Shown in pieces: positions 1 through 35,428 of a stretch of DNA of 35,746 nt. Position 1 is the first letter of the stretch, and every line of letters starts with the position of its first letter. Location: positions 1 through 35,746 of IMG/VR virus record IMGVR_UViG_2563366879_000004, one strand, 5' to 3'. A program made the position numbers and the translations under genes. Under the pieces are notes generated by a model. It saw nothing but the letters and a program-made list of their open reading frames with translations. It ran no database searches and was not told the origin of the DNA. This DNA comes from a virus. Its lineage: Duplodnaviria; Heunggongvirae; Uroviricota; Caudoviricetes.

Positions 1-1362
1 ATGTTTAAACCGGAACTCCTTTCCCCGGCGGGAACGCTGAAAAATATGCGTTACGCTTTCGCTTATGGCGCAGATGCTGTTTATGCGGGCCAGCCGCGTT
101 ACTCCCTGCGTGTACGCAACAACGAATTCAACCACGAAAATCTTCAGCTCGGCATCAATGAAGCCCACGCGCTGGGGAAAAAGTTTTATGTCGTGGTCAA
201 CATTGCACCGCACAACGCCAAGCTGAAAACCTTTATCCGTGACCTGAAACCGGTGGTGGAAATGGGGCCGGATGCGCTGATTATGTCCGATCCAGGGCTG
301 ATTATGCTGGTGCGTGAGCACTTCCCGGAAATGCCAATCCACCTCTCGGTACAGGCTAACGCCGTAAACTGGGCGACGGTGAAATTCTGGCAGCAAATGG
401 GGCTGACCCGCGTGATCCTCTCTCGCGAACTGTCACTGGAAGAGATTGAAGAGATCCGCAATCAGGTGCCGGATATGGAGATCGAAATCTTCGTTCACGG
501 CGCGCTGTGCATGGCCTACTCCGGTCGCTGCCTGCTCTCTGGCTATATCAACAAGCGCGACCCGAACCAGGGTACCTGCACCAACGCCTGCCGCTGGGAG
601 TACAACGTCCAGGAAGGGAAAGAAGATGACGTCGGCAACATCGTACACAAGTACGAGCCGATTCCGGTGCAAAATGTTGAGCCGACGCTGGGTATCGGCG
701 CGCCAACCGACAAAGTGTTTATGATCGAAGAAGCCCAGCGTCCGGGCGAGTATATGACCGCGTTTGAAGATGAGCACGGCACTTACATCATGAACTCGAA
801 AGATCTGCGCGCCATCGCCCATGTTGAACGCCTGACCAAAATGGGCGTGCATTCGCTGAAAATCGAAGGCCGTACCAAATCTTTCTACTATTGCGCACGC
901 ACCGCGCAGGTTTACCGTAAAGCTATCGATGACGCCGCTGCGGGCAAACCGTTCGATACCAGCCTGCTGGAAACTCTGGAAGGTCTGGCGCATCGTGGCT
1001 ATACCGAAGGTTTCCTGCGTCGTCATACCCACGACGATTATCAGAACTACGAATACGGTTATTCGGTTTCTGACCGTCAGCAGTTTGTTGGTGAGTTTAC
1101 CGGTGAGCGCAAGGGGGAGCTCGCGGCGGTAGCGGTGAAAAATAAATTCTCCGTTGGCGACAGCCTTGAGCTGATGACGCCGCAAGGCAACATTAACTTT
1201 ACCCTTGAGCATATGGAAAACGCCAAAGGTGAAGCTATGCCGGTCGCACCAGGCGATGGTTATACTGTGTGGCTCCCGGTGCCGCAGGATCTTGAGCTAA
1301 ATTACGCGCTGCTGATGCGTAATTTCTCCGGGGAAACCACGCGTAACCCCCACGGTAAGTGA
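1..1362 (+). CDS. yegQ: Peptidase U32-family protein YegQ/TrhP (tRNA hydroxylation); host gene on the left flank
   Basis: 453-aa ORF from window base 1; translation recognised as E. coli YegQ (U32 peptidase family, Cys-rich CxxxC region); sits directly upstream of cyaR as in E. coli. Confidence 0.88.
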   Translation: MFKPELLSPAGTLKNMRYAFAYGADAVYAGQPRYSLRVRNNEFNHENLQLGINEAHALGKKFYVVVNIAPHNAKLKTFIRDLKPVVEMGPDALIMSDPGLIMLVREHFPEMPIHLSVQANAVNWATVKFWQQMGLTRVILSRELSLEEIEEIRNQVPDMEIEIFVHGALCMAYSGRCLLSGYINKRDPNQGTCTNACRWEYNVQEGKEDDVGNIVHKYEPIPVQNVEPTLGIGAPTDKVFMIEEAQRPGEYMTAFEDEHGTYIMNSKDLRAIAHVERLTKMGVHSLKIEGRTKSFYYCARTAQVYRKAIDDAAAGKPFDTSLLETLEGLAHRGYTEGFLRRHTHDDYQNYEYGYSVSDRQQFVGEFTGERKGELAAVAVKNKFSVGDSLELMTPQGNINFTLEHMENAKGEAMPVAPGDGYTVWLPVPQDLELNYALLMRNFSGETTRNPHGK

Positions 1363-1446: not shown

Positions 1447-1533
1447 GCTGAAAAACATAACCCATAAAATGCTAGCTGTACCAGGAACCACCTCCTTAGC
1501 CTGTGTAATCTCCCTTACACGGGCTTATTTTTT
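1447..1533 (+). ncRNA. cyaR: CyaR (RyeE) Hfq-dependent sRNA; its 3' terminator hairpin contains the prophage att core
   Basis: Sequence gctgaaaaacataacccataaaatgctagctgtaccaggaaccacctccttagcctgtgtaatctcccttacacgggcttatttttt matches the recalled CyaR sequence; 10-bp stem (gcctgtgtaa / ttacacgggc with one G-U) plus U-run at the 3' end; located between yegQ and ogr as in E. coli. Confidence 0.8.
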
Positions 1534-1534
1534 A
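1507..1534. repeat. attL core (28 bp, aatctcccttacacgggcttatttttta)
   Basis: Exact 28-bp direct repeat of 35232-35259; overlaps the cyaR terminator. Confidence 0.8.
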
Positions 1535-1597
1535 CGCGTAATACAATGAAATAAAAGGATTTATTTCTGGTCACGTCCACACATTGACCACATCGAC

Positions 1598-1621
1598 AAA
1601 AAAGCCCCTCGACTGAGGGGC
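1598..1621 (-). terminator. Rho-independent terminator downstream of ogr (minus strand)
   Basis: On minus strand: GC-rich hairpin gcccctc-agtc-gaggggc followed by a U-run (plus-strand A-run 1598-1603), immediately 3' of the ogr stop. Confidence 0.6.
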
Positions 1622-1634
1622 TTCCTGTTTGTAA

Positions 1635-1853
1635 TTACATCCACATAATTTGCTGCCCTGACGGCAACGGGTGCGGTCTTACGGCGTGGACTTCTCCCGG
1701 CTTCACGATGTATCGCTGTACCGACTCATAAGTGATGAACGTGGCGCTGCAATTCACGTTCTGACACTGGTGATAACGCTCTTTTGTCGTGTCAGTGATA
1801 TAGCGGCTTGTACGCGCATGTGCGGCATGCTGGCATAAAGGACAATGAAACAT
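1635..1853 (-). CDS. ogr: Ogr, zinc-finger late-gene transcriptional activator
   Basis: ORF 1635..1916; the internal start giving 72 aa (MFHCPLCQHAAHARTSRYITDTTKERYHQCQNVNC...) matches recalled P2 Ogr; Cys4 zinc-finger pattern. Confidence 0.9.
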   Translation of the reverse strand: MFHCPLCQHAAHARTSRYITDTTKERYHQCQNVNCSATFITYESVQRYIVKPGEVHAVRPHPLPSGQQIMWM

Positions 1854-6039: not shown

Positions 6040-6459
6040 TCGTGTTTCCGCTTCGCCGGAGCGCCTTTTCGCGCCATGTGATGAGTTCGGTCAGGCTCAT
6101 GGGATACAGTTCTGATGGCGGCCAGTGAAATATCACTGCCACATCCGCCATCAGGTCATCGACCGAGAGATTTTTCGGGAACGTCACTGCACCGAGTTCG
6201 GCGACAAAAAACCGACCACCTTACCGGCCAGCGCCACAAGGTCAGGCAGTTCCAGCGCGGCGACTTCCTGCTCGGTCAGCATCGGTGCCGTCATGCGCGG
6301 CAGCACTTTAATCAGTGCATCGACTTCGGAGTTCGCGACTGCAGCCAGACTGACACCGCGCAGCGTCCCGGCATTGGGTTTCATCAGCGTGACCTGTTCG
6401 ATAACCTGCTCACCACGTTTGACCGGATTGTCCAGGGTAATGACGTTTTCTTTGTTCAT
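6032..6459 (-). CDS. E+E': gpE+E' tail assembly chaperone, made by programmed -1 frameshift at the slippery site around 6205-6212; about 142 aa
   Basis: Minus-strand GGTTTTTTG (T6G slippery heptamer) lies 7 codons before the E stop; manual translation of the -1 frame runs open for 57 codons to a TAA at 6032-6034, overlapping the T start; total 142 aa as in P2. Confidence 0.75.
6184..6459 (-). CDS. E: Tail assembly chaperone gpE (zero-frame product)
   Basis: 91-aa ORF ending ...GFLSPNSVQ; P2 gpE length; precedes T. Confidence 0.85.
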   Translation of the reverse strand: MNKENVITLDNPVKRGEQVIEQVTLMKPNAGTLRGVSLAAVANSEVDALIKVLPRMTAPMLTEQEVAALELPDLVALAGKVVGFLSPNSVQ

Positions 6460-8237: not shown

Positions 8238-8662
8238 CCGTTTAACTCCGTGGTTAATGGGTGCAACTATTTTCTGTTGGGCAGAGCATGAGACGCTATT
8301 TGACCTGGCTGGTCAGTGGATGAAACAACAGATAAAGAAAAGGCGGGCAATTCACCCGCCAGTCCTGATTTGTACTCACTCATTTTCCGACTGACAATTT
8401 ACTTAGCCCAAAAGCTTGTCGAATGTCTCAGGGCGTGAAGCGGACATTGCTAACAGCGTTTTATGTGAATTAACAGGGAGTAGGTCAACGTAGCGCTAGT
8501 GGCGTGTATTCTGGCTTAAAGTGTGGAGCAGTTGTCAGATTCAATGCTCATTGCAAAAAATTGTGTTCTAAAGAGGGCTGTTATATGTTATAGGTTGTTA
8601 AGCACCATCGGTGTAAAATACACTTAGAAGTGTCAAACAAGATCGTTCAAAAGGAAGACAAA

Positions 8663-8920
8663 ATGAATAACCAGCAGTTTAGGGATTTTTTGCGCAAAAA
8701 TGCACATATTGTGGATTCCAATTGGAATCCAACAGATGCACAGCTAGATGAAATCAGAGCAGCAATACAGAGAGAACTAGATCTAGGTAATAAGATAAAC
8801 TATAGCGGCCTTCAACATATCATTATTCGCATTACTGGCACTACTAGGGTAATGATATTTGATAGCGTTGATAATAGTGATTTAAACATGCTATTAGCTG
8901 CAGCAACAAAAAAGAGTTAA
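8663..8920 (+). CDS. Hypothetical 85-aa protein, first gene of the cargo module at the Z/fun position (ORF as supplied begins at 8630)
   Basis: ATG at 8663 preceded by AAGGA at 8651-8655; AT-rich; no recognised domain; opposite strand to flanking tail genes. Confidence 0.55.
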   Translation: MNNQQFRDFLRKNAHIVDSNWNPTDAQLDEIRAAIQRELDLGNKINYSGLQHIIIRITGTTRVMIFDSVDNSDLNMLLAAATKKS

Positions 8921-8923
8921 TAA

Positions 8924-9625
8924 ATGGATAATTTGGAAGAAAAGCTTTCTGCGAAGAAAGCTTTGTTTATTTCATCTGTAAGAAAATTTCTCTCGTCTAA
9001 AAACAGAGATAATTTCATAGATTGCATGATCAATGGTACCGCCTATTTCAATGAGGCAGAAAAAATGGTGGGTAATAGTAAGCTACAAGGTAAGCACAAC
9101 GATGGTTTATGGGTAACTGACTTAGCCGAGTCTTGTGAGGCAATACTTGAGTCTTATCTTCTGCATATTGAATTTATCAAGTCACACCATGAAGACATGA
9201 TGGGTGAAAGTTATAAGAAACCAAACCTGCATGCCCTTTCCAGTATGCAAAGAATGGTGAAGATGTATTGTCAGAAAGAATCATCCAGTCACCTGAGAGA
9301 AAGATTCTTAAAAGCTAACTTACCAACAAAGGGTTTTGACGTGGCTCACAGAGACGATATTGATACTGCAAATAAATATATAACATTAGGTATTGGGTCA
9401 GTATTAGTTATAATGTCATTTGCTTTTGCAATGTTCATGGATAATCCTTCGTATTTTAAAATCTTTATAATAAGATCAACTTTTGCTGTTGGCTGTGCAG
9501 CCTTGGCCTCATTTGTTCCTGGATGGATAAACGTTAACGTAAAAGGGTATGTAAAAGCAGGAGGAGCCATTGCCATTATTTTAATATTTTATTTCTTTAA
9601 CCCCCCTGCAATGCTGATTGGCTAA
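8924..9625 (+). CDS. Hypothetical 233-aa membrane protein (soluble N-terminal region of about 150 aa plus about three C-terminal transmembrane helices)
   Basis: ORF starts 4 nt after the upstream gene; C-terminal hydrophobic stretches (ITLGIGSVLVIMSFAFAMF, FAVGCAALASFVPGWI, GGAIAIILIFYFF); AT-rich. Confidence 0.6.
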   Translation: MDNLEEKLSAKKALFISSVRKFLSSKNRDNFIDCMINGTAYFNEAEKMVGNSKLQGKHNDGLWVTDLAESCEAILESYLLHIEFIKSHHEDMMGESYKKPNLHALSSMQRMVKMYCQKESSSHLRERFLKANLPTKGFDVAHRDDIDTANKYITLGIGSVLVIMSFAFAMFMDNPSYFKIFIIRSTFAVGCAALASFVPGWINVNVKGYVKAGGAIAIILIFYFFNPPAMLIG

Positions 9626-9667
9626 ATTCCCTCCTAAATATGTTCTCCTGCTTATTCCTAATTCAAT

Positions 9668-9709
9668 CCATGGAGAATTTAAATTCTGCCCTCCACCTCC
9701 ATGGTTTTT
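9668..9709 (+). terminator. Putative rho-independent terminator after the Z/fun-locus cargo operon
   Basis: 8-bp inverted repeat ccatggag / ctccatgg with a 21-nt loop, followed by ttttt. Confidence 0.45.
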
Positions 9710-10104
9710 CGTTCCCCTGTAAAATTGAATTTTTGAAGTATGTATTTTTCTGAGAAAATTAAAAAATCCAGCTCAACTGAAATTGTACATCATCTATTTG
9801 GATATAGTTTTTGTTATACCAAAATATTCCTTTTCATCGCGAGGTAAAGATAACTGCAAATTGTAAGCACTAGAACGTTCATAGCAGACTTCCAACCACT
9901 GCTCACTCTCAGTCCAGCCTTGATGGATCGCGCAATATGCCCACTTGCGTCTTTTCGAACGATGCGCAGTTGCGGCCCAATGCATACCAAGGGCTTGTGA
10001 CGAGCGTTAACGTTCAAACGTCTGCTCTTGGCACAGAGCGGACTGTCAGATTAGGCTTTACTCTGTGCCATAGATATGTAATCTCACACCAGAGCTTATA
10101 CAAC

Positions 10105-10633: not shown

Positions 10634-12655
10634 TTAAACGCTCGCTACATTATACCAGGTGCCATTTATATACTTTTGAACGGGTCTGTAATAAACACCC
10701 GCTATATTATCGGCAGAGTTGGACCCTGTATCCTGAACATTAATACCAGACAATACATGACCTGATGGGCACTGGAAATTCCATGTTTGCCAGTTGTTCA
10801 CTCCATAATATTGCTGTGAACCAAGTCGAACATCTTTCACATATCTGGAATCAAAGTTGCCATAGTTGCCGGGAATAACTTGCGAGCCACAAAGCCAGTT
10901 ACCGTTATTATCCATGTACGCCTGACCATCGGTGCCATTGGCTGTCCTTGAGTTATTAATCATGTAGATGCCAAATTGCTTGTTCCCCAGTCCACCTATC
11001 ATGAACTTGCGGTCAGCGTGATTCTGGCGAAGCAACGCCTGAGCGCTATCAGTGTTAACTATATTTTTCCCAAAGATAGCGTTGTTATCGCGCATCTGAA
11101 TCCACATACCATTACTGCTGTTAATAGCAAAACGGTCTGAAAGTGTCTCCCCTGAAACATTAAGGCCACTCCCCATCGAAACAGCGCCAGTAGCGTTATT
11201 AATCCATAATGGCCTTAATCCGTTATAAGTCCCCATGTTGTCACCGGAGTTTGTCAACATGAAGTATGTATTTGAACCATCATTACGAATAAAGAATCCG
11301 TAATTACCATAAGCAATACGTAGGCCGTTTGCTGATTTTGATATTATTTCGCCATTTACAATGGCATTGACAAGAACATACAAAGCATCCCATTTAAGAT
11401 TCATCAGGTCTTTTGTTGTAGTACTCTGGCGGCTTCTCCATTTGAAATATTCATTGCCATTATCCCCCGTTTCAAACCACATGAATGAATCAGTGTCACC
11501 ATCGGCATCATTTTTAAATCCAATCTTCGCCCAGTCAGTATTTCGAATCCAGGCAAGGATTGAGTCGTTTTCAAAAGTAAGTCCACCGGACAAGGTATCG
11601 CCATTTTTTTGCACGGCGTTCCCGGCTCGGTTTACCGTTTCCTGTAAACCGAGATATTCGATAACGGCGGCAACGGTCGATTTAGCCAGAATATCCCGCC
11701 CGACTTTTGTCAGGGTTGCCAGGCTGGCAACATCATTCCCCGTAAAATACGGAAGCCTGTCTGCCGCAGTAGCAAGCCCCGCCAGCGCCGTCAGGGTTGC
11801 ATCTTTCGGTTGCTTACCCGCAAGCGCATTAGTCATGGTGGTAGCAAAATTCGGGTCATTGCCCAGCGCCGCCGCCAGCTCGTTCAGCGTATTCAGTGCG
11901 TCAGGCGACGAGTCTACAAGGGCGGCAATCGCGGCCATAACGAAAGCCGTGTTTGCGATCTGAGTATTATTCGTTCCCTGTCGCGCAGTTGGCGTCGTTG
12001 GCGTTCCGGTCAGTGCAGGGCTGTTTAATGGCGCTTTCTTGTTCGTTTCATCCATTACCGTCTTAACGGCTTTCGGCGTTGCGGCCAGTGTTTCAGACGT
12101 GCTGTTGGTCGCGCTGCTTAGCTGAGTAAAACCTTTTGCGGTCAGCGAGGCGTCCGGGTGACGTCGTGACTGTTCGTGCTCTGCAATTTTGTCATCAACG
12201 TAATCCTGCGTTGCCATCACCGTTGTGGTGTCAATGGTCAGCTCCACTGAGGCCACACTGCTGACGATGATGACCATGCGGCAGGTCTGCGAACGCCCTG
12301 AGCCTTCGGCAAGGGCAGGCTTATAACTTTCGGCCATGTTCGCCACGGCAATTAACGTTCCTGCATCATCGTACAGGCCAAGCTCACGCATCCAGAAACC
12401 GCCCACCTCCGGCGGAATAACCAGCTCTGCGATAATATAATTACTGTTTCGTTTGTCCTGCCTGATTTTGTTCAGCGCATGTCGCCAGACTTCGTGGATA
12501 AGCCCGGTCTGTCCGGCATCCGGGACAGGCAATTTACCACCGCCATCCCCGACGGCCATCGTGGTAATGTTGACCTTCCGCCCTCCCGGTGCGGTTGCCG
12601 CTGCCAGCTTTGCTGCACCGGCAGTGGTGATAACGGTTCTGAATTTTGTGCTCAT
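10634..12655 (-). CDS. H: Tail fiber protein gpH
   Basis: 673-aa ORF; Ala/Thr-rich repeats in the middle; P2 gpH position (length here slightly different from the recalled 669 aa). Confidence 0.85.
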
Positions 12656-15081: not shown

Positions 15082-15158
15082 AACGGGAAGGATGCCGCCG
15101 GACGATACCAGCAGCAATCATGGAGGACTCTGTCAGCCGTGACACAACATAATAAATA

Positions 15159-15914
15159 TTAGTTGTAACACTTCTCTATAATCTTCATACACTCCTCATG
15201 AGCTAAATCATGGCTGTCAAATTCTTTATTAAAAAAGAAGAAAAACGCCTTCTTAACCTGAGGCATTTCAATAAAAATAAATTCATCAACCTTATGAAAG
15301 AAATGAAAACTCTTGTTTGATGTTTCAAAAACCATCAAAGAATTATGTTTTTTATCCTTCCATTTCGACATCAGATTGCGTCGCGATTTTCTTATAATCC
15401 TGAAGACATCCTCCGGTGTCGTATCGACATTCCCCCAAAACATTGCAACCGGGAAGTTTGCAAGGAAAGGGATATAATCCCCCCCTTTATACCTGAGAAA
15501 GCGGGTCCGTAAATCCATTAATTGCAACTTAAAGCCCATGTATTGCAACCACCATATGATGCAATCATATTCATAATCTGTTAACTCATCGCCCCTCTTT
15601 TCCGTAAGAAATTTCTTCAGGTTATACTCAAACGCTCCCAGCAAATCAGAATTGCACACTCTGCATGCTGGTACAGTGGCTTTGATGTAATGAGTTGACT
15701 GATTATTCTTTTTATTAATTAAAAGTTTTTCAGCATTTGACTCAAAAGCCCACTGAGGAATAATGTGCTCACGAGTAATATCGCCAGAACTCCCGCATAA
15801 CACACATACATCAGCATTATGGTCAGCAATAATACAATCCATAACTTTCTTTTGAGAATGCTTTACTCTTTTTCTCAAAATGGAAAACTTTTTATCCACA
15901 AACACCCGTCTCAT
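15159..15914 (-). CDS. HNH-motif nuclease-domain protein (251 aa) at the orf30 variable position
   Basis: N-terminal CVLCG...REHIIP...N...CRVCN pattern (two CxxC pairs flanking an HNH-like core); ATGA overlap with the S stop; AT-rich relative to neighbours. Confidence 0.6.
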   Translation of the reverse strand: MRRVFVDKKFSILRKRVKHSQKKVMDCIIADHNADVCVLCGSSGDITREHIIPQWAFESNAEKLLINKKNNQSTHYIKATVPACRVCNSDLLGAFEYNLKKFLTEKRGDELTDYEYDCIIWWLQYMGFKLQLMDLRTRFLRYKGGDYIPFLANFPVAMFWGNVDTTPEDVFRIIRKSRRNLMSKWKDKKHNSLMVFETSNKSFHFFHKVDEFIFIEMPQVKKAFFFFFNKEFDSHDLAHEECMKIIEKCYN

Positions 15915-16369
15915 ATAACATCTTTCGATAGAATCACTAATAACTCCCTTTCTATCAATTGTATAGATTCCTTGTCAAAACCAAATAACTCACGAACAGG
16001 ATATTCCACCACAGCACTATTACGCCCCGGCTTATCCCTAAGCCCTAATTGATGTACCCGCGCAATTCGTTGTACTCCGCTGGCAAACGCCACCACCGCC
16101 GCACTCTCGCTACCTGTTGCTTTCATAAACCGGTTAGTGCGTAATTTCACAAACATTTCCCGCTTTATCCGGCCTTTCTTATTTCGCACTGGCTGGTTTT
16201 TTCTCGGTACATACGGCGTACCATCCGGGGCTTTTTGTAATTTAATTCGCTGCTGCTGGCGCTGGCGCAGTTTCTTCGCAATATCTACCGCCAGTCGCCG
16301 ACGCCCTGACGGTGACAGTGACTCAGTCAGTCCGGTCAGCCGGTCTTCAAAACGCTTAAACTCATTCAT
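15911..16369 (-). CDS. S: Tail completion protein gpS
   Basis: 152-aa ORF in P2 gpS position (recalled P2 length 150 aa). Confidence 0.8.
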   Translation of the reverse strand: MNEFKRFEDRLTGLTESLSPSGRRRLAVDIAKKLRQRQQQRIKLQKAPDGTPYVPRKNQPVRNKKGRIKREMFVKLRTNRFMKATGSESAAVVAFASGVQRIARVHQLGLRDKPGRNSAVVEYPVRELFGFDKESIQLIERELLVILSKDVI

Positions 16370-22290: not shown

Positions 22291-24063
22291 ATGACCATCA
22301 CCACAGACACCACTCTTTTACACGACCCGCGTCGTCAGGCGGCGCTGCTGTACTGGCAGGGGTTTTCCGTGCCGCAGATTGCCGCCATGTTGCAGATGAA
22401 ACGCCCGACGGTGCAGAGCTGGAAACAGCGCGACGGCTGGGACAGCGTTGCCCCCATCAGCCGTGTCGAAATGAGTCTGGAAGCGCGGCTGACCCAGCTC
22501 ATCATCAAACCGCAGAAAACCGGCGGTGACTTCAAGGAAATTGACCTGCTGGGACGCCAGATTGAACGACTGGCACGGGTCAACCGCTACAGCCAGACCG
22601 GCAACGAGGCAGACCTTAATCCGAACGTCGCTAACCGCAACAAAGGCGGGCGTCGCAAACCGAAAAAGAATTTTTTCAGTGACGAGGCCATCGAAAAGCT
22701 GGAGCAGATTTTCTTTGAGCAGTCTTTCGACTATCAGTTGCACTGGTATCGTGCCGGGCTTGAGCACCGCATCCGCGATATCCTGAAATCCCGCCAGATT
22801 GGCGCGACGTTTTATTTTTCCCGCGAGGCGCTGCTGCGCGCCCTGAAAACCGGCCATAACCAGATTTTTCTGTCGGCCAGTAAAACGCAGGCGTATGTGT
22901 TCCGTGAATACATCATCGCCTTTGCCCGGCTGGTTGACGTTGACCTGACCGGTGACCCGATTGTCCTGGGCAATAACGGCGCAAAACTGATTTTTCTCGG
23001 CACCAACTCCAACACCGCACAGAGCCATAACGGCGACCTGTACGTCGACGAGATTTTCTGGATCCCGAATTTTCAGGTACTGCGTAAGGTGGCATCTGGT
23101 ATGGCCTCACAGAGTCACCTGCGCTCGACCTATTTCTCCACCCCGTCCACGCTGGCGCACGACGCCTACCCGTTCTGGTCGGGTGAACTGTTTAACCGGG
23201 GACGCGCCAGCGCCGCCGAACGCGTGGAAATCGACGTCAGTCATAACGCCCTTGCCGGTGGGCTTCTCTGTGCGGACGGCCAGTGGCGACAGATTGTCAC
23301 CATTGAGGACGCCCTGAAAGGCGGCTGCACGCTGTTCGACATTGAGCAGCTCAAACGCGAAAACAGCGCCGACGATTTTAAAAACCTGTTCATGTGTGAA
23401 TTTGTTGACGACAAGGCATCGGTGTTCCCGTTCGAGGAGCTGCAACGCTGCATGGTCGACACGCTGGAAGAATGGGAAGACTATGCGCCGTTTGCCGCCA
23501 ATCCGTTCGGCTCCCGCCCGGTATGGATTGGTTACGACCCGTCACACCGTGGCGACAGCGCCGGATGCGTGGTACTGGCACCGCCGGTGGTGGCCGGTGG
23601 CAAATTCAGGATACTTGAGCGTCACCAGTGGAAAGGCATGGACTTTGCCACCCAGGCTGAATCCATCCGCAAACTCACCGAAAAATACAACGTCGAATAC
23701 ATCGGAATTGATGCCACCGGCCTCGGTGTCGGCGTGTTCCAGCTCGTGCGCTCGTTCTATCCCGCCGCGCGTGATATCCGCTACACGCCGGAAATGAAAA
23801 CCGCAATGGTGCTCAAGGCAAAAGACGTTATCCGCCGTGGCTGTCTGGAATACGACGTCAGCGCCACCGACATCACCAGCTCGTTTATGGCTATCCGCAA
23901 GACCATGACCAGCAGCGGACGCAGCGCCACGTATGAGGCCAGCCGCAGCGAGGAAGCCAGCCACGCCGACCTCGCCTGGGCGACCATGCACGCCCTGTTA
24001 AATGAGCCACTCACCGCCGGTATCAGCACCCCGCTGACATCCACCATTCTGGAGTTTTACTGA
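22291..24063 (+). CDS. P: Terminase large subunit (ATPase) gpP
   Basis: ATG at 22291 with GAGGT 5 nt upstream gives 590 aa (MTITTDTTLLHD...), P2 gpP length. Confidence 0.9.
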   Translation: MTITTDTTLLHDPRRQAALLYWQGFSVPQIAAMLQMKRPTVQSWKQRDGWDSVAPISRVEMSLEARLTQLIIKPQKTGGDFKEIDLLGRQIERLARVNRYSQTGNEADLNPNVANRNKGGRRKPKKNFFSDEAIEKLEQIFFEQSFDYQLHWYRAGLEHRIRDILKSRQIGATFYFSREALLRALKTGHNQIFLSASKTQAYVFREYIIAFARLVDVDLTGDPIVLGNNGAKLIFLGTNSNTAQSHNGDLYVDEIFWIPNFQVLRKVASGMASQSHLRSTYFSTPSTLAHDAYPFWSGELFNRGRASAAERVEIDVSHNALAGGLLCADGQWRQIVTIEDALKGGCTLFDIEQLKRENSADDFKNLFMCEFVDDKASVFPFEELQRCMVDTLEEWEDYAPFAANPFGSRPVWIGYDPSHRGDSAGCVVLAPPVVAGGKFRILERHQWKGMDFATQAESIRKLTEKYNVEYIGIDATGLGVGVFQLVRSFYPAARDIRYTPEMKTAMVLKAKDVIRRGCLEYDVSATDITSSFMAIRKTMTSSGRSATYEASRSEEASHADLAWATMHALLNEPLTAGISTPLTSTILEFY

Positions 24064-25097
24064 TGAGCAAGAAAAAAGGGAAAACACAGCAACCTGCGGC
24101 AAAAAAAATGACCGCCAGCGCCCCGAAAATGGAGGCATTCACCTTTGGTGAGCCAGTGCCGGTACTCGACCGCCGTGACATTCTGGATTACGTCGAATGC
24201 ATCAGTAACGGCAGATGGTATGAGCCACCGGTCAGCTTTACCGGTCTGGCAAAAAGCCTGCGTGCTGCCGTGCATCACAGCTCACCGATTTACGTCAAAC
24301 GTAATATTCTGGCTTCAACGTTTATCCCGCACCCGTGGCTTTCCCAGCAGGATTTCAGCCGCTTTGTGCTGGATTTTCTGGTGTTCGGTAATGCGTTTCT
24401 GGAAAAGCGTTACAGCCCCACCGGTAAGGTCATCAGACTGGAAACCTCACCGGCAAAATATACCCGCCGTGGCGTGGAGGAGGATGTTTACTGGTGGGTG
24501 CCGTCCTTCAACGAGCCGACAGCCTTCGCGCCCGGTTCCGTGTTTCACCTGCTGGAGCCCGATATTAATCAGGAGCTGTACGGCCTGCCGGAATATCTCA
24601 GCGCCCTTAACTCTGCCTGGCTGAATGAGTCGGCCACGCTGTTCCGCCGCAAGTATTACGAAAACGGCGCACATGCCGGATACATCATGTACGTTACCGA
24701 TGCCGTGCAGGATCGCAACGATATCGAAATGCTTCGCGAAAACATGGTTAAGTCGAAAGGCCGCAATAACTTTAAAAATCTGTTTCTCTATGCCCCGCAG
24801 GGGAAAGCCGACGGCATTAAAATTATCCCCCTCAGTGAAGTGGCAACGAAGGACGATTTTTTTAATATCAAAAAATCCAGCGCCGCTGACCTGCTGGACG
24901 CGCACCGCATCCCCTTTCAGTTGATGGGCGGCAAGCCGGAGAACGTCGGGTCGCTGGGTGATATTGAGAAAGTGGCAAAGGTCTTTGTCCGCAATGAGCT
25001 TATCCCGTTACAGGACAGGATTCGGGAAATAAACGGCTGGCTCGGTCAGGAGGTCATCCGCTTTAAAAACTACTCACTGGACACAGACAACGGCTGA
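24063..25097 (+). CDS. Q: Portal protein gpQ
   Basis: 344-aa ORF; TGATG overlap with the P stop; P2 gpQ length. Confidence 0.9.
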   Translation: MSKKKGKTQQPAAKKMTASAPKMEAFTFGEPVPVLDRRDILDYVECISNGRWYEPPVSFTGLAKSLRAAVHHSSPIYVKRNILASTFIPHPWLSQQDFSRFVLDFLVFGNAFLEKRYSPTGKVIRLETSPAKYTRRGVEEDVYWWVPSFNEPTAFAPGSVFHLLEPDINQELYGLPEYLSALNSAWLNESATLFRRKYYENGAHAGYIMYVTDAVQDRNDIEMLRENMVKSKGRNNFKNLFLYAPQGKADGIKIIPLSEVATKDDFFNIKKSSAADLLDAHRIPFQLMGGKPENVGSLGDIEKVAKVFVRNELIPLQDRIREINGWLGQEVIRFKNYSLDTDNG

Positions 25098-25265: not shown

Positions 25266-25284
25266 AGTGCTTTCCCCGCCTCGC
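25266..25284 (-). other. cos: cos cohesive-end site (19 nt, GGCGAGGCGGGGAAAGCAC on minus strand)
   Basis: Plus strand gtgctttccccgcctcgcc is the reverse complement of the recalled P2 19-nt cohesive end; located just beyond Q as in P2. Confidence 0.8.
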
Positions 25285-25434
25285 CCGCCCGCTTAATGGG
25301 GCGGTTTTGATGCAGTTGTATAACGACGCAGACTTCCTGACAGTTCTATCAACTCATAACAAAAAAAAGCATTACAGATGAATGCAAAATCATGCAACTA
25401 ATGATGGCGTACAGGCTAGGTGAGAAAATAAATG

Positions 25435-26235
25435 CTATTTCATCAGTCCTATAAAAGCTGCTGTCATGCTACCCAATGCACCAATAGCAGCAAATAACGT
25501 TGCCCAAAACATGCTTTTTTGGCTACGAATATTCTCATTATATCGTTGTTTTTCATTATTGAAGTGATTTAACGTATTAATTGCTTTTCCGGTGGGCTTA
25601 TAACCATCTCGAGTCTTTGAAATGTCCCCACTCTCTACAAGGGAATCCAGACATAAGCGAAGTTCTTTTATGAGTCGAGAATAATCATCATGGTAGATCC
25701 ATAAACGTCCTGCCACATCATTCATAATTAGAGTCTCACTGAATGGTTTTTCCCCTTGTTGCTCTCGATAAATTCTGACAATTGCAGCCAATACCGTCAT
25801 TACATCAGTTATCTCCTGCTTGCGTTGTCGATACAAATACTTCTCACGACTTAGCTTTTTATTTTGACGATCCGCTATTCTTCTAAATCTAAGTACATTA
25901 AAATAAGATAAATCATCCAATGAGTCAAACTTCAATTCATGCGCATGATAATAATAAATTCCAGAAAAGGAATTTGATGTAAGTCGTTCTGGTTTAAGAA
26001 TTGTATCAATATTGAAAGTTTTATTCTGATGATTCCACTTCTTAACCTTTATAATTCCGTTTGAATAACTATCAAAAAGATAGTCATTACCCTCGTCATC
26101 CTTAATGTAAACGGAATACATATCGTAATGAATGGCACTCTCATACATTAAACTAATTTTGCCATTTTCAGGGATCTTCTTTGACTCAAAAACTTTCAGA
26201 AACTTTACAACATCAACTTTATTTTTATGCCTCAT
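25435..26235 (-). CDS. Hypothetical 266-aa protein with a single C-terminal transmembrane anchor; candidate effector of the adjacent RT system
   Basis: AT-rich ORF 165 nt downstream of the RT gene on the same strand; C-terminus MFWATLFAAIGALGSMTAAFIGLMK is strongly hydrophobic; no recognised catalytic motif. Confidence 0.6.
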   Translation of the reverse strand: MRHKNKVDVVKFLKVFESKKIPENGKISLMYESAIHYDMYSVYIKDDEGNDYLFDSYSNGIIKVKKWNHQNKTFNIDTILKPERLTSNSFSGIYYYHAHELKFDSLDDLSYFNVLRFRRIADRQNKKLSREKYLYRQRKQEITDVMTVLAAIVRIYREQQGEKPFSETLIMNDVAGRLWIYHDDYSRLIKELRLCLDSLVESGDISKTRDGYKPTGKAINTLNHFNNEKQRYNENIRSQKSMFWATLFAAIGALGSMTAAFIGLMK

Positions 26236-26400
26236 ACATTCAGCCTTGACTGTAAACCACCATATTAAATGATTGCACTAACGACTCGTACTACTTATTG
26301 TTCAACCCAGTCAGAACTGAAAGCAAACTTTTGCACTAACTGGGTTTCCATCATAATATATCGATACTAATAAAATCCGATATTATTATATTTTAGTGTA

Positions 26401-27351
26401 TTAAACCGATGTATTTGCTTTCAACGTCAATACCTTCGATCTATAACGTTTTTCAATAACCCCCATTGAATATAAACGACCAAATAATTTCTTTGCTGTT
26501 CTTGTATCTTTAGCTTGTTCTACATCTTTTATTATTTTCCAAAGCTCTATTTCTCTAGCCATAAGATAATGCTGTTCGTTCCTAACCTTTAAGCTATCCC
26601 CAAATACTATCACTCCTGTCACTAGTTTAGGCTTATCCCCAGCATATAATTTCGTTTTAGTTGGATGCATAACGTGTCCATGCTTATTAATAATCTTACG
26701 AATCACGCTGCAAAACAATCGATTTACATTATCTCCAGAAAAAGTAAGATCATCGACATAAACTGTCATTTTCACACGAAACTTCTCACAAAGTTGATTC
26801 ATTTCATCAAACATTCTGGAATTTGCAAAATATGCTAATGGCATACTAATCCGACTACCCGTTGGCAATCGTTCATGACAGGTACATATATGAGATAAAA
26901 TATCAGCCACATCTGGCGACATTTTCATTATTGAGAAAAAGAAAGAAAATATCATTTCTCTTGTTGTTGACGGAAAAAAAGATCTAATATCTGTAGTCAT
27001 CAACTTCTGATGATTGAGATGTGCTTTAGCATTTGTTATGTTAGAGCAACTTTTTTTACCAGAGTGTAAATATTCGGGCATAGCTATACGCAATAATAGA
27101 CTCGCAATACGTGTATGCACTACATCTAATTTTTCTAAAGGCTTTTGTATTTTCCGTATTTTATTTTTTTTAGAAAGCTGTTCAAAAATAGAGTAATTAC
27201 CCTCATCCCTTTTCAAAACTGATAGGTCATTGATACTAACGCAGAGCAAGCTAGCCAACTTTTTTTTACTTTTAAGTTTATAAAGTGGCGAATCCGTAAT
27301 AGGATAAGATTTATTTTTAGTTGAAACCTTCAGCTTAATCCTTTTTTTCAT
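26401..27351 (-). CDS. Retron-type reverse transcriptase (316 aa)
   Basis: RT motifs in order: NAKAH (retron NAxxH), DIRSFFPS, LPTGSRISMPLAYF (LPxG...SxP), YVDD catalytic box (VYVDDLTFS), and KLVTGVIV (retron VTG motif); size typical of retron RTs; very AT-rich. Confidence 0.8.
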   Translation of the reverse strand: MKKRIKLKVSTKNKSYPITDSPLYKLKSKKKLASLLCVSINDLSVLKRDEGNYSIFEQLSKKNKIRKIQKPLEKLDVVHTRIASLLLRIAMPEYLHSGKKSCSNITNAKAHLNHQKLMTTDIRSFFPSTTREMIFSFFFSIMKMSPDVADILSHICTCHERLPTGSRISMPLAYFANSRMFDEMNQLCEKFRVKMTVYVDDLTFSGDNVNRLFCSVIRKIINKHGHVMHPTKTKLYAGDKPKLVTGVIVFGDSLKVRNEQHYLMAREIELWKIIKDVEQAKDTRTAKKLFGRLYSMGVIEKRYRSKVLTLKANTSV

Positions 27352-27637
27352 TTCTTTTACTTACCCACTCTAGTATATCCAGAACTTTCCCTGCCAGTTT
27401 TAAACGTAAACTTTTGGATAATCGTCCTTGTGTCCCTAATGATTCTGAAAAAAAGACCAAAGAGGATACTGGCATGTCGAAATGGGAAGCATAACGCTGC
27501 AAAATATCAATCGACGGCACCCATAGTCCGCTTTCAATCTCTACTATTCTGCTTTTTGGAATACCTAAAGATGATGATAAGTCAACTATTGATTCTTTAT
27601 GGTATTGCCTTATTAAACGAAGGGCTTTATGCAACAT
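27335..27637 (-). CDS. XRE-family helix-turn-helix protein (about 100 aa) overlapping the RT start
   Basis: HTH-like segment IVDLSSSLGIPKSRIVEIESG; preferred ATG at 27637 has GGAG 6 nt upstream (the supplied ORF starts at 27649); 3' end overlaps the RT start by 17 nt, suggesting translational coupling. Confidence 0.65.
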   Translation of the reverse strand: MLHKALRLIRQYHKESIVDLSSSLGIPKSRIVEIESGLWVPSIDILQRYASHFDMPVSSLVFFSESLGTQGRLSKSLRLKLAGKVLDILEWVSKRNEKKD

Positions 27638-27673
27638 AGGCAACTCCATCTTGTTGAAACTAGGGAGGACGCA

Positions 27674-27829
27674 TTACTCATCTCCCCCTTCAAAGAAGTC
27701 AACTGCGCGAGTGATCCAATAAAGTAGTCTAATAAGCCACTTAATTACACCCCAAGCGTTAGGAGTCTTCTTTTTCCGGTTTAACTTGTTTTGCGCCTGC
27801 TGTTCGTTGGTTACTTTATCATTTTTCAT
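27674..27829 (-). CDS. Possible 51-aa peptide with basic N-terminus and one hydrophobic helix (MKNDKV...WGVIKWLIRLLYWITRAV...)
   Basis: ATG at 27829 preceded by AAGGAG at 6-nt spacing; lies within the supplied 97-aa ORF 27674..27967; could instead be non-coding leader or ncRNA sequence. Confidence 0.35.
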   Translation of the reverse strand: MKNDKVTNEQQAQNKLNRKKKTPNAWGVIKWLIRLLYWITRAVDFFEGGDE

Positions 27830-28100
27830 GATCTGCTCCTTATGTCCACGGTGTGCAAACGATATGTCTGCTCCAGCACCATGGCTCGCCCTCATAAGGA
27901 TGAGATTGAACAGCACCAGCTCCCTGCTCCACGAACCCTTTGTCGCCCAAAGGGTTCGAATACCCATACGCTATGCCGCGTGAATCAGAGACTCCTGTCG
28001 CTGACAGAGGCGTTGCGCGGGGTAAATGTTAGAAAGCATTAGCTTTCCACGGGCAATAAATACCCAATTGATGGCGATTTATCTCACTAACTAACCAATG
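27830..28100 (-). ncRNA. Candidate structured leader or retron msr/msd-like ncRNA upstream of the RT operon (boundaries uncertain)
   Basis: Perfect 11-bp stem cgaaccctttg/caaagggttcg (27932-27958), 8-bp stem 28030-28049, imperfect stem 27992-28010, direct repeats of cgtgga; retron ncRNAs are normally encoded just upstream of the RT operon. The a1/a2 repeats could not be confirmed by eye. Confidence 0.3.
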
Positions 28101-28271
28101 ATTGAATCATACCAAGTAAACCGTTGTATTTGATCTCTCCTTATATAATTTTTTGTTATTAATAAATATAATTAAATAACAAAATGAAATAAAACTAATC
28201 TTCAACCGTCTCATCACAAGAAATATCAACAAATCAAGAATATCGTTTGATTATCTAGTCTTTCCAATTCA

Positions 28272-30566
28272 TTAAAATAAAAACAATGCTTCATCTTCAA
28301 TTCCCGGCCAAACATCAGCAACCGGATACGTGAATTTTTTCCCGTCATAATTTACAGTTGCTCCACGCGCCAGCGCCTCAAGTTCCCATCGCTGCGGCCT
28401 GATACCGTTCTGAGCAAGGTCAACGCGGATACGGGTAATTTGCATTCGTTCTGACCGGGTCAGTCTGGCCGATGGCGCTATTTCATGTGGTTTTAACGGT
28501 TTTCCGTTTCTTTGCTGGCGGTTTGGTCTTCTCAGTCCGTGTTTTAATGCCCCCCTGAGCGCCCTCACGACCTCCGGGTCACTCCATTCGATGACACCGT
28601 CATCAACCAGATTAAGCACTGCTGCGGCGTTCTCAGTAGGTGTGGGAGCCGGTAACGAAGTATCACCACCGGTGAGCTTTCCACAGTTATTGACAGGACT
28701 CCGAGGCGCGGCGATGCCGCTTTTTAAAGTCAAAGGCTCAACGACCGGAACTTTCGGAACAATGCGCCAGTCCGTCGTTCTGGTGATATGAATATGACGC
28801 GCGCCGAGATGCGGTGCGTAAATGCCGACCACTCTCTCGACCTCTTCCTCGTACTCGTTAACGTCATCCGACGGGCTACGGGCGACTCTGACAGTCTGAC
28901 AATCGCGCGGAACATTTGCCCCACCCTGCGCGCTGATATACAACGCAAAATCACCTCTGTCTGCGGCGGCGCGTGCAGCCTCGACGCGCTCGTCAAACTC
29001 ATCAGCAATGCTGACGCCGCGAGGCAATTTGCGTAGTTCACGGTAAGCCCCCATTGTCGGCAGACCAACCGTTTTAAATTGCGGAATGCGCCACGTTGAC
29101 GCCCATGCGGTAACAGCCGCAGCAGTATCTTTCAGCGGCCTGCCGGTATCGTTATCGAGCTGACCATCCAGTGCATAGCCATCGATGTTTTTTGAGATGT
29201 ATTTCGCGATATATCCCGCAGCACCGCCCCGGTTAAGGTGTTTTGCCTGAAAACGGTTTCGCGCGGCTCCTCTTTCGTCGCCATCCTCTTTGAGCGCATA
29301 GCGACGCATGATTTCGATAATCTGGTTACGCTGGCGTGGATTACAAAAAAGCATCATATGCCAGTGCGGCGTTCCGTCGTGGTGTGGCTCGACGACACGC
29401 AAACCGTAGACCTGTAAATCATTATCCTTGAATGCCGTGCGCATCAGGCTCCAGATGCGGCAGAGATAACGCTGCGCATCCTTTGGATTAAATGCCTCAT
29501 CGTTCCAGCCGTGATTAAGCTGAACGGTTTTACTTTCGCCTTTTCTGACCTGACGAGTCGGGTGATACTTTGACGGCGCGGTCAGCGTGATAAACATCCC
29601 CACATCACCCTCTGCGGCGGCGTAACGCTCAATACCGGCAATGGTGTTCATCAGCTCCATCCGGCGAATTTCAGGATTAGAAATACTGCCCATCACCTTA
29701 CTGATAAGGTCGATGCGCTCGCCGGTTTCCCTGTTTTCAAGGTCACACGATTTAAGAAATTCCAGATTTGCCTGGCGGCGCGCACGCACATCACGAATGG
29801 CGTGTTTACTGGCATAAGGAGAACGGTCTTTATTGACCTCCCCGACAGCTATCAGTAACGCTTCATGCCAGCGCATACGCTGGCCTTTAAGCTGATGAGT
29901 CCACCACTCATCGTTAAACAGACGGGCAATGGCAGAATATGCCTGCCTCGTGGTTATCTGTCCTTTACGGTATTTTTTCCAGTAGAGCGGGGAAATATTG
30001 AAAGCACGTGCAGCGCCAGCAACATGACCATACAGGTGAGCCTGCGCCTCATCCGTAAACAGTGATTCTTTTTCGCCATGCGCATCCACCCAGGCATCGC
30101 TGAGTTCCTCATACATCATGAAAAGCTGCGATGAGATACGGGCAGCAAACTTTTTCAGCTCCTTGTCATTCATTCCAGGCAGGCGCGCATAGTGGTCACG
30201 CTCTGCCAGAAACAGCAACGACGCGTCGGTGTTCATTTCATTGCGCTGATTAACGCGCTCAATGCGCGGCCATAAACGACGCTGAAAAGTGGATGTGAGG
30301 AAATAAAACCCGTGCAACGGGCTTTTATTGCGCCGGATGTAGTCATAGCGTGAAGTAAACAGCGAGCGCAAAAAGTAAGGCAGGCGGTTAATCGTGGATA
30401 AAACACCTTGCACCTGACGCATCTCGTCACGTGTAAGGGGTCTTTCGCGCCCGACAGCCTCGCGTGGCGCATTCCATGCATAAGCACCGGTAAACGCCTT
30501 ACCGGTGCCTGCGGCAAACGCAGACGGAGGTACGCAGGTGTATTGCTCCTGGAAAGAATGACTCAT
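28272..30566 (-). CDS. A: Replication initiation protein gpA (rolling-circle nickase)
   Basis: 764-aa ORF (recalled P2 gpA about 761 aa); N-terminal region resembles the recalled gpA sequence; position between orf83-side genes and the cos-proximal hotspot. Confidence 0.88.
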   Translation of the reverse strand: MSHSFQEQYTCVPPSAFAAGTGKAFTGAYAWNAPREAVGRERPLTRDEMRQVQGVLSTINRLPYFLRSLFTSRYDYIRRNKSPLHGFYFLTSTFQRRLWPRIERVNQRNEMNTDASLLFLAERDHYARLPGMNDKELKKFAARISSQLFMMYEELSDAWVDAHGEKESLFTDEAQAHLYGHVAGAARAFNISPLYWKKYRKGQITTRQAYSAIARLFNDEWWTHQLKGQRMRWHEALLIAVGEVNKDRSPYASKHAIRDVRARRQANLEFLKSCDLENRETGERIDLISKVMGSISNPEIRRMELMNTIAGIERYAAAEGDVGMFITLTAPSKYHPTRQVRKGESKTVQLNHGWNDEAFNPKDAQRYLCRIWSLMRTAFKDNDLQVYGLRVVEPHHDGTPHWHMMLFCNPRQRNQIIEIMRRYALKEDGDERGAARNRFQAKHLNRGGAAGYIAKYISKNIDGYALDGQLDNDTGRPLKDTAAAVTAWASTWRIPQFKTVGLPTMGAYRELRKLPRGVSIADEFDERVEAARAAADRGDFALYISAQGGANVPRDCQTVRVARSPSDDVNEYEEEVERVVGIYAPHLGARHIHITRTTDWRIVPKVPVVEPLTLKSGIAAPRSPVNNCGKLTGGDTSLPAPTPTENAAAVLNLVDDGVIEWSDPEVVRALRGALKHGLRRPNRQQRNGKPLKPHEIAPSARLTRSERMQITRIRVDLAQNGIRPQRWELEALARGATVNYDGKKFTYPVADVWPGIEDEALFLF

Positions 30567-31570
30567 TCACATACACCGGCATAGACACTACTGCAAACGG
30601 CTTTATCATTCGCCGAAGCCAGTAAATCAAACTGAGTACCCCCACGCGTTGTCATTGTCCAGTCATGGTAGGTTTCTATTCCGTATGCCTCGACTGTTAC
30701 AATCTCAATACGACGTTCTGCGCGTAACGGATCATGTGTGGATGGGAAAAAAGTGGAATTTCCCCGACGGGAGCACGACGCAACCAGTCGTTCCCATTCA
30801 GCAACCCGCTTTATTTCCTCCGGCCACCGGCGAAAAATTTCTGCCAGTTCAGATTTACGGACATGAATACATGGCATACAACCAACACGGCCACACCCCT
30901 GCTGATATAACGGATTTGGCTTAATGTCATGTCTTCTGGCTATTGCAAATACATCTTCATGCTTCCAGTGCAAAATCGGGCGATATACATGCAATCCGGG
31001 GGTGTTGTCTGCATCCTCTTCCCAGACAGGTAAAGCTGCGCGTGATGGCGATTCCTGAGCACGCACTCCCTGCCAGCTAATCACTTCCTCAAATTCATTG
31101 AGTAAAGGCAGGATTACCTGAGAACGCACGGGTTCATGTTTCAGTTCAAATGTGCAAAATCTGGCTTTGGTTGATGGGAAACGCCCCTTCCACAGACACA
31201 AATCAAGAAACGGGATACCCGTTGGTTTGAGAATTTCCAGCGCACAACTGATGCGCTGGTGCGCTTCTTCTTCCGACATTCCACAATCGTTAACCAACAA
31301 ATCAGGCCATTTGGTCTGGATAAACTTGCGCTTTGATTCAATCCGGCAGGAAAAATCAGCCCTGACCCTTTGAATTGGGCCAAGCCGTTTTTCCAGATAA
31401 TCCAGATATTTCATTGTCTGTGGATGTTCATGTCCCGTATCAGCAAAAACCGGCAATATGGGTACATTTTCTTCAATAGCGACAAGCCACTGAGCAAGGC
31501 TGTCCTTTCCACCTGAAACAAAAATAACATTGATGGTATTTTCAGTATGGCAACGAGCATCAGTAATCAT
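30563..31570 (-). CDS. PAPS-reductase-family PP-loop protein (335 aa), accessory gene between orf83 and A
   Basis: N-terminal SGGKDS PP-loop motif; C-terminal cysteine cluster CGRVGCMPC; ATGA-type overlaps with both neighbours; absent from the recalled P2 map. Confidence 0.65.
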   Translation of the reverse strand: MITDARCHTENTINVIFVSGGKDSLAQWLVAIEENVPILPVFADTGHEHPQTMKYLDYLEKRLGPIQRVRADFSCRIESKRKFIQTKWPDLLVNDCGMSEEEAHQRISCALEILKPTGIPFLDLCLWKGRFPSTKARFCTFELKHEPVRSQVILPLLNEFEEVISWQGVRAQESPSRAALPVWEEDADNTPGLHVYRPILHWKHEDVFAIARRHDIKPNPLYQQGCGRVGCMPCIHVRKSELAEIFRRWPEEIKRVAEWERLVASCSRRGNSTFFPSTHDPLRAERRIEIVTVEAYGIETYHDWTMTTRGGTQFDLLASANDKAVCSSVYAGVCE

Positions 31571-31845
31571 TCAGACGCTCCTCTGGAGAACGCCTCTGAA
31601 CAACGCTTGCTGAGCTGCTCAACCTGCGTGTTTAAATCGGCAAAAGATTTTGCGCTTCCGGTCAGAATATCGTGATGCATCAGGCCGGAAACGAGCTGGC
31701 TTAATTTCGGATAATAACCAACCACCGCCAGCCATTCCTGACCGGCGTTTTTACCGCTTTCCGCTCTCTTTTTCTCGTGGAGAATAAACTGAAAGCTGTC
31801 ACTGGTAACGACATAACGTTCGCCAATTTCAATACGAATACTCAT
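31567..31845 (-). CDS. Hypothetical early protein (P2 orf83 position)
   Basis: 92-aa ORF in the early operon, synteny with P2 orf83. Confidence 0.6.
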   Translation of the reverse strand: MSIRIEIGERYVVTSDSFQFILHEKKRAESGKNAGQEWLAVVGYYPKLSQLVSGLMHHDILTGSAKSFADLNTQVEQLSKRCSEAFSRGASE

Positions 31846-33333: not shown

Positions 33334-33609
33334 TTAACGTGGTTCACCGAGACCTAACCACATCAACCAGCCGTCACGAATCTCTTTAGGGCGGCTTTCA
33401 TAAGCCAGTTTTAGTCCGTTATTCCATGCCGGAAGGTATACCCAATATTCACCTGCACGACCTGAAGCTGATTGTGGATCGGTCATATCAATTACAGGCA
33501 GCTTTCCTTTATCGATCATCCGACGAACCGCTCCTGTCGATTTTCCTATTAGTTTTGCGAACTCCTGATAAGGAATCGCATCAGTCATGAGTGTTACTTG
33601 CTTGCTCAT
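33334..33609 (-). CDS. cox: Cox, excisionase and repressor of Pc
   Basis: 91-aa ORF, first gene of the early operon facing C; P2 Cox length. Confidence 0.85.
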   Translation of the reverse strand: MSKQVTLMTDAIPYQEFAKLIGKSTGAVRRMIDKGKLPVIDMTDPQSASGRAGEYWVYLPAWNNGLKLAYESRPKEIRDGWLMWLGLGEPR

Positions 33610-33690: not shown

Positions 33691-33730
33691 ATCTAAACTA
33701 AATACTATTGAGATCTAAACACTATGTCAA
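33691..33730 (-). promoter_or_regulatory. Early promoter Pe (-35 TTGACA, 17-bp spacer, -10 TAGTAT on minus strand) flanked by two 8-bp direct-repeat operator half-sites (atctaaac)
   Basis: rc of 33725-33730 is TTGACA; rc of 33702-33707 is TAGTAT; exact 17-bp spacer; atctaaac at 33691-33698 and 33713-33720 (22 bp apart) flank the -10, the arrangement known for the P2 C operator. Confidence 0.6.
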
Positions 33731-34023
33731 ACACGATAAGCGAGAAGATAGTCTTAATGCGAAAATCAGAGTATTTGAGCAGACAACAACTTGCTGATTT
33801 AACAGGGGTTCCGTATGGCACGCTGAGTTACTATGAAAGTGGTCGTTCAACACCTCCAACAGATGTCATGATGAACATCCTGCAGACCCCACAATTCACC
33901 AAATACACTTTATGGTTCATGACCAATCAGGTCGCTCCTGAGTCCGGGCAAATTGCGCCCGCTCTCGCACACTTTGGGCAAAACGAAACAACGTCGCCCC
34001 ACTCCGGTCAAAAGACTGGTTAA
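33724..34023 (+). CDS. C: Immunity repressor C
   Basis: 99-aa ORF with HTH segment SRQQLADLTGVPYGTLSYYESG; P2 C length; divergent from cox. Confidence 0.88.
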   Translation: MSNTISEKIVLMRKSEYLSRQQLADLTGVPYGTLSYYESGRSTPPTDVMMNILQTPQFTKYTLWFMTNQVAPESGQIAPALAHFGQNETTSPHSGQKTG

Positions 34024-35152: not shown

Positions 35153-35231
35153 CGTTTAAGGGCTTTCAGTGGTAATTTATGCCGCTCAAACCCGCATTGT
35201 ACCGTTGAAAGCCCCTACTGGTGACACCCTA

Positions 35232-35259
35232 AATCTCCCTTACACGGGCTTATTTTTTA
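35232..35259. repeat. attR core (28 bp), identical to 1507-1534
   Basis: Exact direct repeat aatctcccttacacgggcttatttttta next to int. Confidence 0.8.
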
Positions 35260-35428
35260 TGCATAAGCTGTAAATACGGATTGATCCCTGGTCACCGTCT
35301 TCCATTGACCACATCGATAGAATCCTCCTTCATAGCACGATGCCTTTCACTTATCGACATCGTACTCGCACAGGTTCCAGTTACGCACAGCCAGAACGCG
35401 CATGTTTGACGCTTACCAAAAAATATTC

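Follow-up and report, generated by a model that had tools for sequence, protein, structure and literature searches.

The window analyzed in this study, a single stretch of 35,746 nucleotides, almost certainly carries a P2-type prophage (genus Peduovirus) that was inserted at the classical primary site of P2, the 3' end of the sRNA gene cyaR, by Int-mediated recombination between the attP and attB cores. The 33.7 kb between the two copies of a direct repeat are colinear with bacteriophage P2 (AF063097) at 96–98% identity, as found by blastn and a phage database search. We met no evidence contradicting attP × attB integration. The correct annotation places the bounds of the prophage at the 27-bp core copies (1507–1533 and 35232–35258) and keeps cyaR as an intact gene. 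The features of the window are listed in Table 1.

Table 1 Features of the cyaR-integrated P2-type prophage and its host flanks.
Feature	Position	Strand	Basis
yegQ (trhP), host left flank	1-1362	+	ORF; RefSeq annotation of matching genomes
cyaR (ryeE) sRNA	1447-1533	+	Rfam RF00112 CyaR_RyeE match at 1445-1530; same as cyaR of 23AR0806 and K-12
cyaR intrinsic terminator	1498-1533	+	stem 1498-1508/1515-1525, loop 1509-1514, T tract from 1526; terminator scan and RNA fold
attL core	1507-1534	+	27-bp P2 core (1507-1533) plus one matching A; exact repeat; same as AF063097 attP core
IHF site of P arm (putative, by homology)	1532-1565		P2 24324-24357 carried over by colinear alignment
P2-type prophage body	1535-35231		about 33.7 kb; blastn map against AF063097 and phage database search
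Int arm-type sites of P arm, GGTCACGTCCACACATTGACCACATCGA	1569-1596		same as P2 'Int P arm' feature, 24293-24320
Terminator of ogr and F operon	1601-1624		P2 annotation; scan 1602-1623; + strand also reads as hairpin with T-rich tail
ogr, late-gene activator	1635-1853	-	first gene inside prophage; colinear with P2 ogr, 24036-24254
ORF in fun(Z) locus	8630-8920	+	phrog_31842
ORF in fun(Z) locus	8924-9625	+	phrog_5814
251-aa ORF, replacement of orf30 locus (15082-16144)	15159-15914	-	phrog_10503; sub-threshold Endonuclease_1 match only
cos, 19-nt cohesive-end sequence	25267-25285		alignments to both ends of linear P2 record overlap there
ORF beside retron	25435-26235	-	phrog_7611
Retron reverse transcriptase	26401-27351	-	PADLOC RT_VI, 1.8e-105
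Retron HTH protein	27335-27649	-	PADLOC HTH_VI, 2.5e-31
ORF beside retron	27674-27967	-	phrog_5826
PAPS-reductase-like protein, 335 aa	30563-31570	-	Pfam PF01507, 5e-35; PADLOC SspD-, BrxP-, DndC-like; phrog_424
cox, excision directionality factor and Pc repressor	33334-33609	-	91-aa ORF colinear with P2 cox, in block of 97.8% nucleotide identity
C immunity repressor	33724-34023	+	99-aa ORF colinear with P2 C
int, tyrosine integrase	34139-35152	+	336/337 aa identical to P2 Int; Pfam Int_N, Phage_integrase
Int arm-type sites of P' arm, two GTGTCCACA repeats	35118-35144		P2 24470-24496 carried over; sequence identical
Cox binding region (putative, by homology)	35142-35215		carried over from P2 24399-24472
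attR core	35232-35259	+	27 bp (35232-35258) plus one matching A; exact repeat
Decayed P arm of older P2-like phage	35260-35322		host flank; repeats with left side; blastn to P2 through core to 35317
yegR, host right flank	35429-35746	-	ORF; RefSeq annotation of matching genomes

The 28-nt sequence AATCTCCCTTACACGGGCTTATTTTTTA forms the attL and attR copies. The original prediction had described an identical repeat at these two places, and it proved to be exact and unique: no third copy was found in the window, even at three mismatches, and the chance expectation is 0 (no match in 100 dinucleotide-preserving shuffles). The GenBank record of P2 (AF063097) annotates the attP core at 24356–24382, and these 27 nt equal the repeat minus its last A. 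A 27-bp core shared by attP and attB is present twice, as attL and attR. The description of a 28-bp att core holds for the length of the repeat in the window, but canonically the core has 27 bp, and position 28 matches only because the host attB here reads TTTTTTA. A weaker likeness continues beyond the 28 nt, with 33 of 35 positions identical between 1507–1541 and 35232–35266, and a further 76% identity between 1557–1601 and 35278–35322.

CyaR is a CRP-dependent and Hfq-dependent sRNA, and Hfq binds its U-tract 3' end. The Rfam model RF00112 (CyaR_RyeE) matched the gene in full length (model 1–85 of 85), scoring 100.7 bits where the gathering threshold is 47. The region upstream of cyaR is the same as in other E. 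coli, and a simple sigma-70 scan found no sigma-70 site for the gene. According to a terminator scan and RNA folding, the gene ends in a hairpin with an 11-bp stem and a 6-nt loop, followed by the U-rich tail TATTTTTTA; the scan placed the stem at 1498–1525 and the T tail at 1526–1535, and the minimum free energy fold is the same hairpin. The left repeat copy had been claimed to form the 3' arm and U tract of this terminator. It spans both in full and also takes in the whole loop and the final 2 nt of the 5' arm. From the beginning of cyaR through TTTTTTA, the window matches the unoccupied strain 23AR0806 base for base, and the first differing base is 1535. The further claim that integration regenerates an intact sRNA gene agrees with this identity to the unoccupied strain through the U tract; as phage and host share the same core, cyaR is rebuilt unchanged.

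The prophage is apparently complete as judged from its gene content. The essential set of P2 (Q, P, O, N, M, L, X, Y, K, R, S, V, W, J, I, H, G, FI, FII, E, T, U, D, ogr, int, C, cox, B, and A) is present together with cos, colinear with P2 and with the expected ORF lengths. Int contains the Pfam domains Int_N (1.3e-24) and Phage_integrase (8.7e-22), and the gene of this P2-type tyrosine integrase lies beside the attachment site, with 80 bp between its end and the attR core. The predicted Int arm-type, IHF, and Cox sites are kept in sequence at the places equivalent to those in P2. An attP reconstructed from the left side of attR and the right side of attL is identical to P2 at 392 of 400 positions, and the reconstructed attB is identical to the empty site of 23AR0806 across the junction at 460 of 463 positions.

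The integration pathway can be read from these sites. The phage tyrosine integrase almost certainly exchanged the attP core with the same 27 bp in the cyaR terminator, a stretch made up of loop, 3' arm, and U tract, and IHF would have assisted the reaction by analogy with P2. The two products are an attL composed of the 5' part of cyaR, the core, the P arm, and ogr, and an attR composed of int, the P' arm, the core, the host flank, and yegR. The core shared by the two partners restored cyaR without change.

The host flanks of the window were joined and searched in 5426 complete E. coli genomes, and they are located at most about 1 kb apart in 4565 of them. The unoccupied 23AR0806 has a single core followed by exactly the right (attR-side) flank of the window, and the empty site of BL21 likewise has one core, with a 7-T run, between the same host flanks. 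The core, whose absence from the empty site would have spoken against the original prediction, is thus present in the unoccupied strains examined. The junction of the int 3' end, core, and yegR flank occurs in 808 of the 5426 genomes (about 15%), and 812 genomes were found with the 7-T version of the query. These counts and published insertion-site lists support the recurrent P2-family attachment site that had been supposed. The exact 27-mer is rare elsewhere: only 21 stretches were found among one-genome-per-species representatives, all of them in Escherichia/Shigella, Kluyvera, or Enterobacter hormaechei, and each corresponds either to a cyaR terminator or to the attR end of a P2-type prophage.

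P2-like remnants had also been described at the cyaR/ogrK/yegZ locus of K-12, and ogrK and a D' remnant are indeed located there. The K-12 locus reads core, P arm, ogrK, D' fragment, a partial second core (TACACGGGCTTATTTTTTT), and the usual flank. The partial second core, which contains 7 T, is fused to the D' remnant (1445–1463 of the K-12 locus sequence), and the deletion ends where gene D and the core share the short microhomology CTACAC/TTACAC.

The host flank that follows the attR core is itself related to P2. It aligns with the P2 P arm and retains the Int arm-site segment CATTGACCACATCGA. The decayed arm is also present in BL21, in 23AR0806, and in the species representatives of E. coli and Shigella that were examined (ECMA0423 and S. 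flexneri), and CATTGACCACATCGA is kept in all empty E. coli sites examined. A fuller fossil arm, which retains the region of the IHF site, is found in Escherichia sp. MOD1-EC7003, and the fossil arm is absent from the flank of E. ruysiae. The attB of E. coli is therefore the attL of a long-deleted P2-like prophage, and the fossil arm in sites that appear empty shows that use of the site predates the diversification of E. coli.

Natural variants narrow down the position of strand exchange within the core. EL361 harbors a distinct P2-family phage at the same cyaR site (9127–42300 of its locus sequence). The Int of this phage shares 86% identity with that of P2, its structural genes differ, it carries a Dam methylase, a gene for AbiH lies adjacent, and its attL and attR are identical over only 22 nt. 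The attL of EL361 reads AATCT-CCCTTACACGGGCTTATTTTTT and its attR reads AAACG-CCCTTACACGGGCTTATTTTTT; because the two differ to the left of the shared 22 nt, the exchange is placed to the right of 1511. The T run of the core is polymorphic in E. coli (6, 7, or 8 T), and it is unequal between attL and attR in five loci: H6, RM12761, A23, the K-12 remnant, and E. ruysiae. At each of these loci, attL has the phage-type 6T+A and attR has 7T or 8T like related unoccupied hosts, which puts the right-hand limit of the exchange at the end of the T run. Strand exchange thus presumably occurs within CCCTTACACGGGCTTATTTTTT (1512–1533), a position that is based on a handful of natural variants and on T-run differences that replication slippage could mimic. 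The Int overlap is predicted to lie near TTACAC, which is flanked by the imperfect inverted repeats AATCTCCC and GGGCTTAT. HCM-28C-2 was left out of the comparison of attL and attR, as its ogr side abuts pflB in an apparent rearrangement.

It follows from these positions that at least the end of the CyaR U tract at attL would physically be phage DNA. The overwriting of the U tract itself is well supported at the sequence level by the five informative loci. Lysogeny of a 7T host would accordingly shorten the CyaR U tract by one U. The U tract of CyaR in lysogens and in K-12 is probably phage-derived and can differ by one or two U from that of non-lysogens. We consider a wider proposal unlikely as a whole. 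In it, integration of P2-family phages physically remodels the cyaR 3' end: 7T and 8T hosts, among them the ancestor of K-12, are reset to 6 U followed by A, and nearly all unoccupied E. coli sites keep a fossil P arm in which an Int arm-type site is intact. Termination of CyaR or its loading with Hfq might then be measurably altered by these phage-derived bases, or the bases might contribute to the preference of P2 for the site.

Other explanations of the locus were weighed against this evidence. The original prediction regarded the 3' end of the sRNA, and with it termination and Hfq binding, as supplied by the phage. As to physical origin, this part is supported for the U tract by the T-run variants, and the DNA downstream of 1534 is the phage P arm instead of the host flank; however, no base of the sRNA was changed here. 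Both core copies of the window carry 6T+A, the same as the closest empty site, the first difference from 23AR0806 lies past the U tract, and a change of one or two U would arise only in hosts with a 7T or 8T attB. Since no base of CyaR changes in the window, termination and Hfq binding are not expected to be affected in this case. A functional change of CyaR in this strain by a phage-supplied 3' end is very unlikely, and it was rejected on the identity of the sequence through the U tract.

Entry of the prophage without Int appears less probable still. A P2-like phage could have recombined in a RecA-dependent manner with the older P2 remnant beside cyaR, and the host flank after the core, as a decayed P arm, does provide some homology to incoming P2-like DNA. 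However, at approximately 76–80% over approximately 60–90 nt, this homology is too weak for RecA to recombine it efficiently, and perfect identity extends only across the core. Both junctions are exactly as predicted for attP × attB and are common to hundreds of genomes. Homologous recombination was rejected as the main route on its poor homology and the exactness of the junctions at the core, and we regard it as highly improbable. A direct repeat flanking a mobile element could also be a target-site duplication from a transposition-like insertion, or a repeat that arose by chance. The same 27 nt, however, already exist in the attP of the free phage and once in empty host sites, and the repeat is not expected by chance. 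Moreover, the integrase of the element is of the tyrosine type, and no ORF resembling a transposase stood out in the list of ORFs or in the alignment with P2. Duplication of a target site or chance was rejected on the pre-existing core and the chance expectation, and its probability is negligible.

The closest known system is bacteriophage P2 at locI, its preferred site in E. coli, with Int, IHF, Cox, and a 27-bp core. The window has the identical core, an Int of 99.7% identity, the same Int sites in the arms, the IHF and Cox regions, and the same gene order (ogr-attP-int-C-cox). It differs from P2 only in cargo: other genes take the place of the old/tin, fun(Z), and orf30 loci, and a gene for a PAPS-reductase-like protein is extra. 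In addition, identity between the copies reaches 28 nt here because of the TTTTTTA of the host attB. The K-12 remnant (cyaR-ogrK-D'/yegZ-yegR) occupies the same site with the same attL of core, P arm, and ogr; approximately 640 bp are left in K-12, whereas the window contains a whole prophage.

The arrangement as such is already known, as cyaR/ryeE is a published P2 integration site that is common in E. coli. Archer et al. 2011 listed 'cyaR RNA' as the insertion site of Wphi2 (P2; strain W), ogr-D' (K-12), and P2*B (strain B) in their Table 2 (PMC3032704), and Bobay et al. 2013, citing Wassarman et al. 2001, noted that ryeE in E. coli was previously known as a phage target (PMC3603311). The att system of P2 (Int, IHF, Cox, core, and arms) is summarized in PMC3448106 and also annotated in the GenBank record. 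The present analysis makes modest additions, namely the variant-based bound on strand exchange, the probable reset of the U tract from 7T or 8T to 6T in lysogens and also in the K-12 lineage, and the fossil P arm. Other phages use the 3' ends of RNA genes: 186 in tRNA-Ile, Fels-2/SopE-phi in ssrA, P2-type elements at rybB, and phages at sdsR/ryeB (PMC3448106, PMC3603311, PMC3032704, PMC3333887). As at these tRNA, tmRNA, and other sRNA sites, the phage carries the 3' part of a structured RNA gene and thereby rebuilds the gene on integration, and the target holds a hairpin. Unlike the tRNA and tmRNA sites, the target here is the terminator of an Hfq-dependent sRNA without a tRNA-like fold, and only the loop, 3' arm, and U tract are duplicated.

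The cargo of the prophage is probably more interesting than its attachment site, as it includes a type VI retron and several hotspot genes. Comparison with P2 by blastn showed swapped cargo at 8417–10016, 10679–11350, 15082–16144, 25315–28301, and 30534–31588. The old/tin locus of P2 is replaced by the type VI retron (window 25315–28301), and an Rfam search found no retron msr RNA near the reverse transcriptase gene. The gene for the PAPS-reductase-like protein is located between the gpA and orf83 homologs and has no counterpart in P2. The fun(Z) locus (8417–10016) is replaced by two ORFs. PADLOC gave no matches for these two ORFs (8630–8920 and 8924–9625) or for the ORF at 15159–15914.

Several occupied sites in other genomes show further variation. 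The P2-type prophage in HCM-28C-2 has yegR on its int side and pflB/focA on its ogr side, suggesting a chromosomal inversion or a recombination between two P2-like prophages at different sites. The P arm of the prophage in RM12761 (O145:H28) starts with ATGCATAA, which is similar to the host flank (approximately 6065–6130 of its locus sequence), and the identity of its attL and attR runs past the 27-bp core because of this resemblance; its int is split by the IS66-family element ISEc8. The cyaR gene of Kluyvera sichuanensis has the 5' arm GCCCGCGTAA against the P2-type 3' arm TTACACGGGC (approximately 2083–2170 of its locus sequence), and the terminator stem therefore contains a C-A mismatch, which could be a simple SNP or a phage-type 3' arm placed on a diverged host 5' arm.
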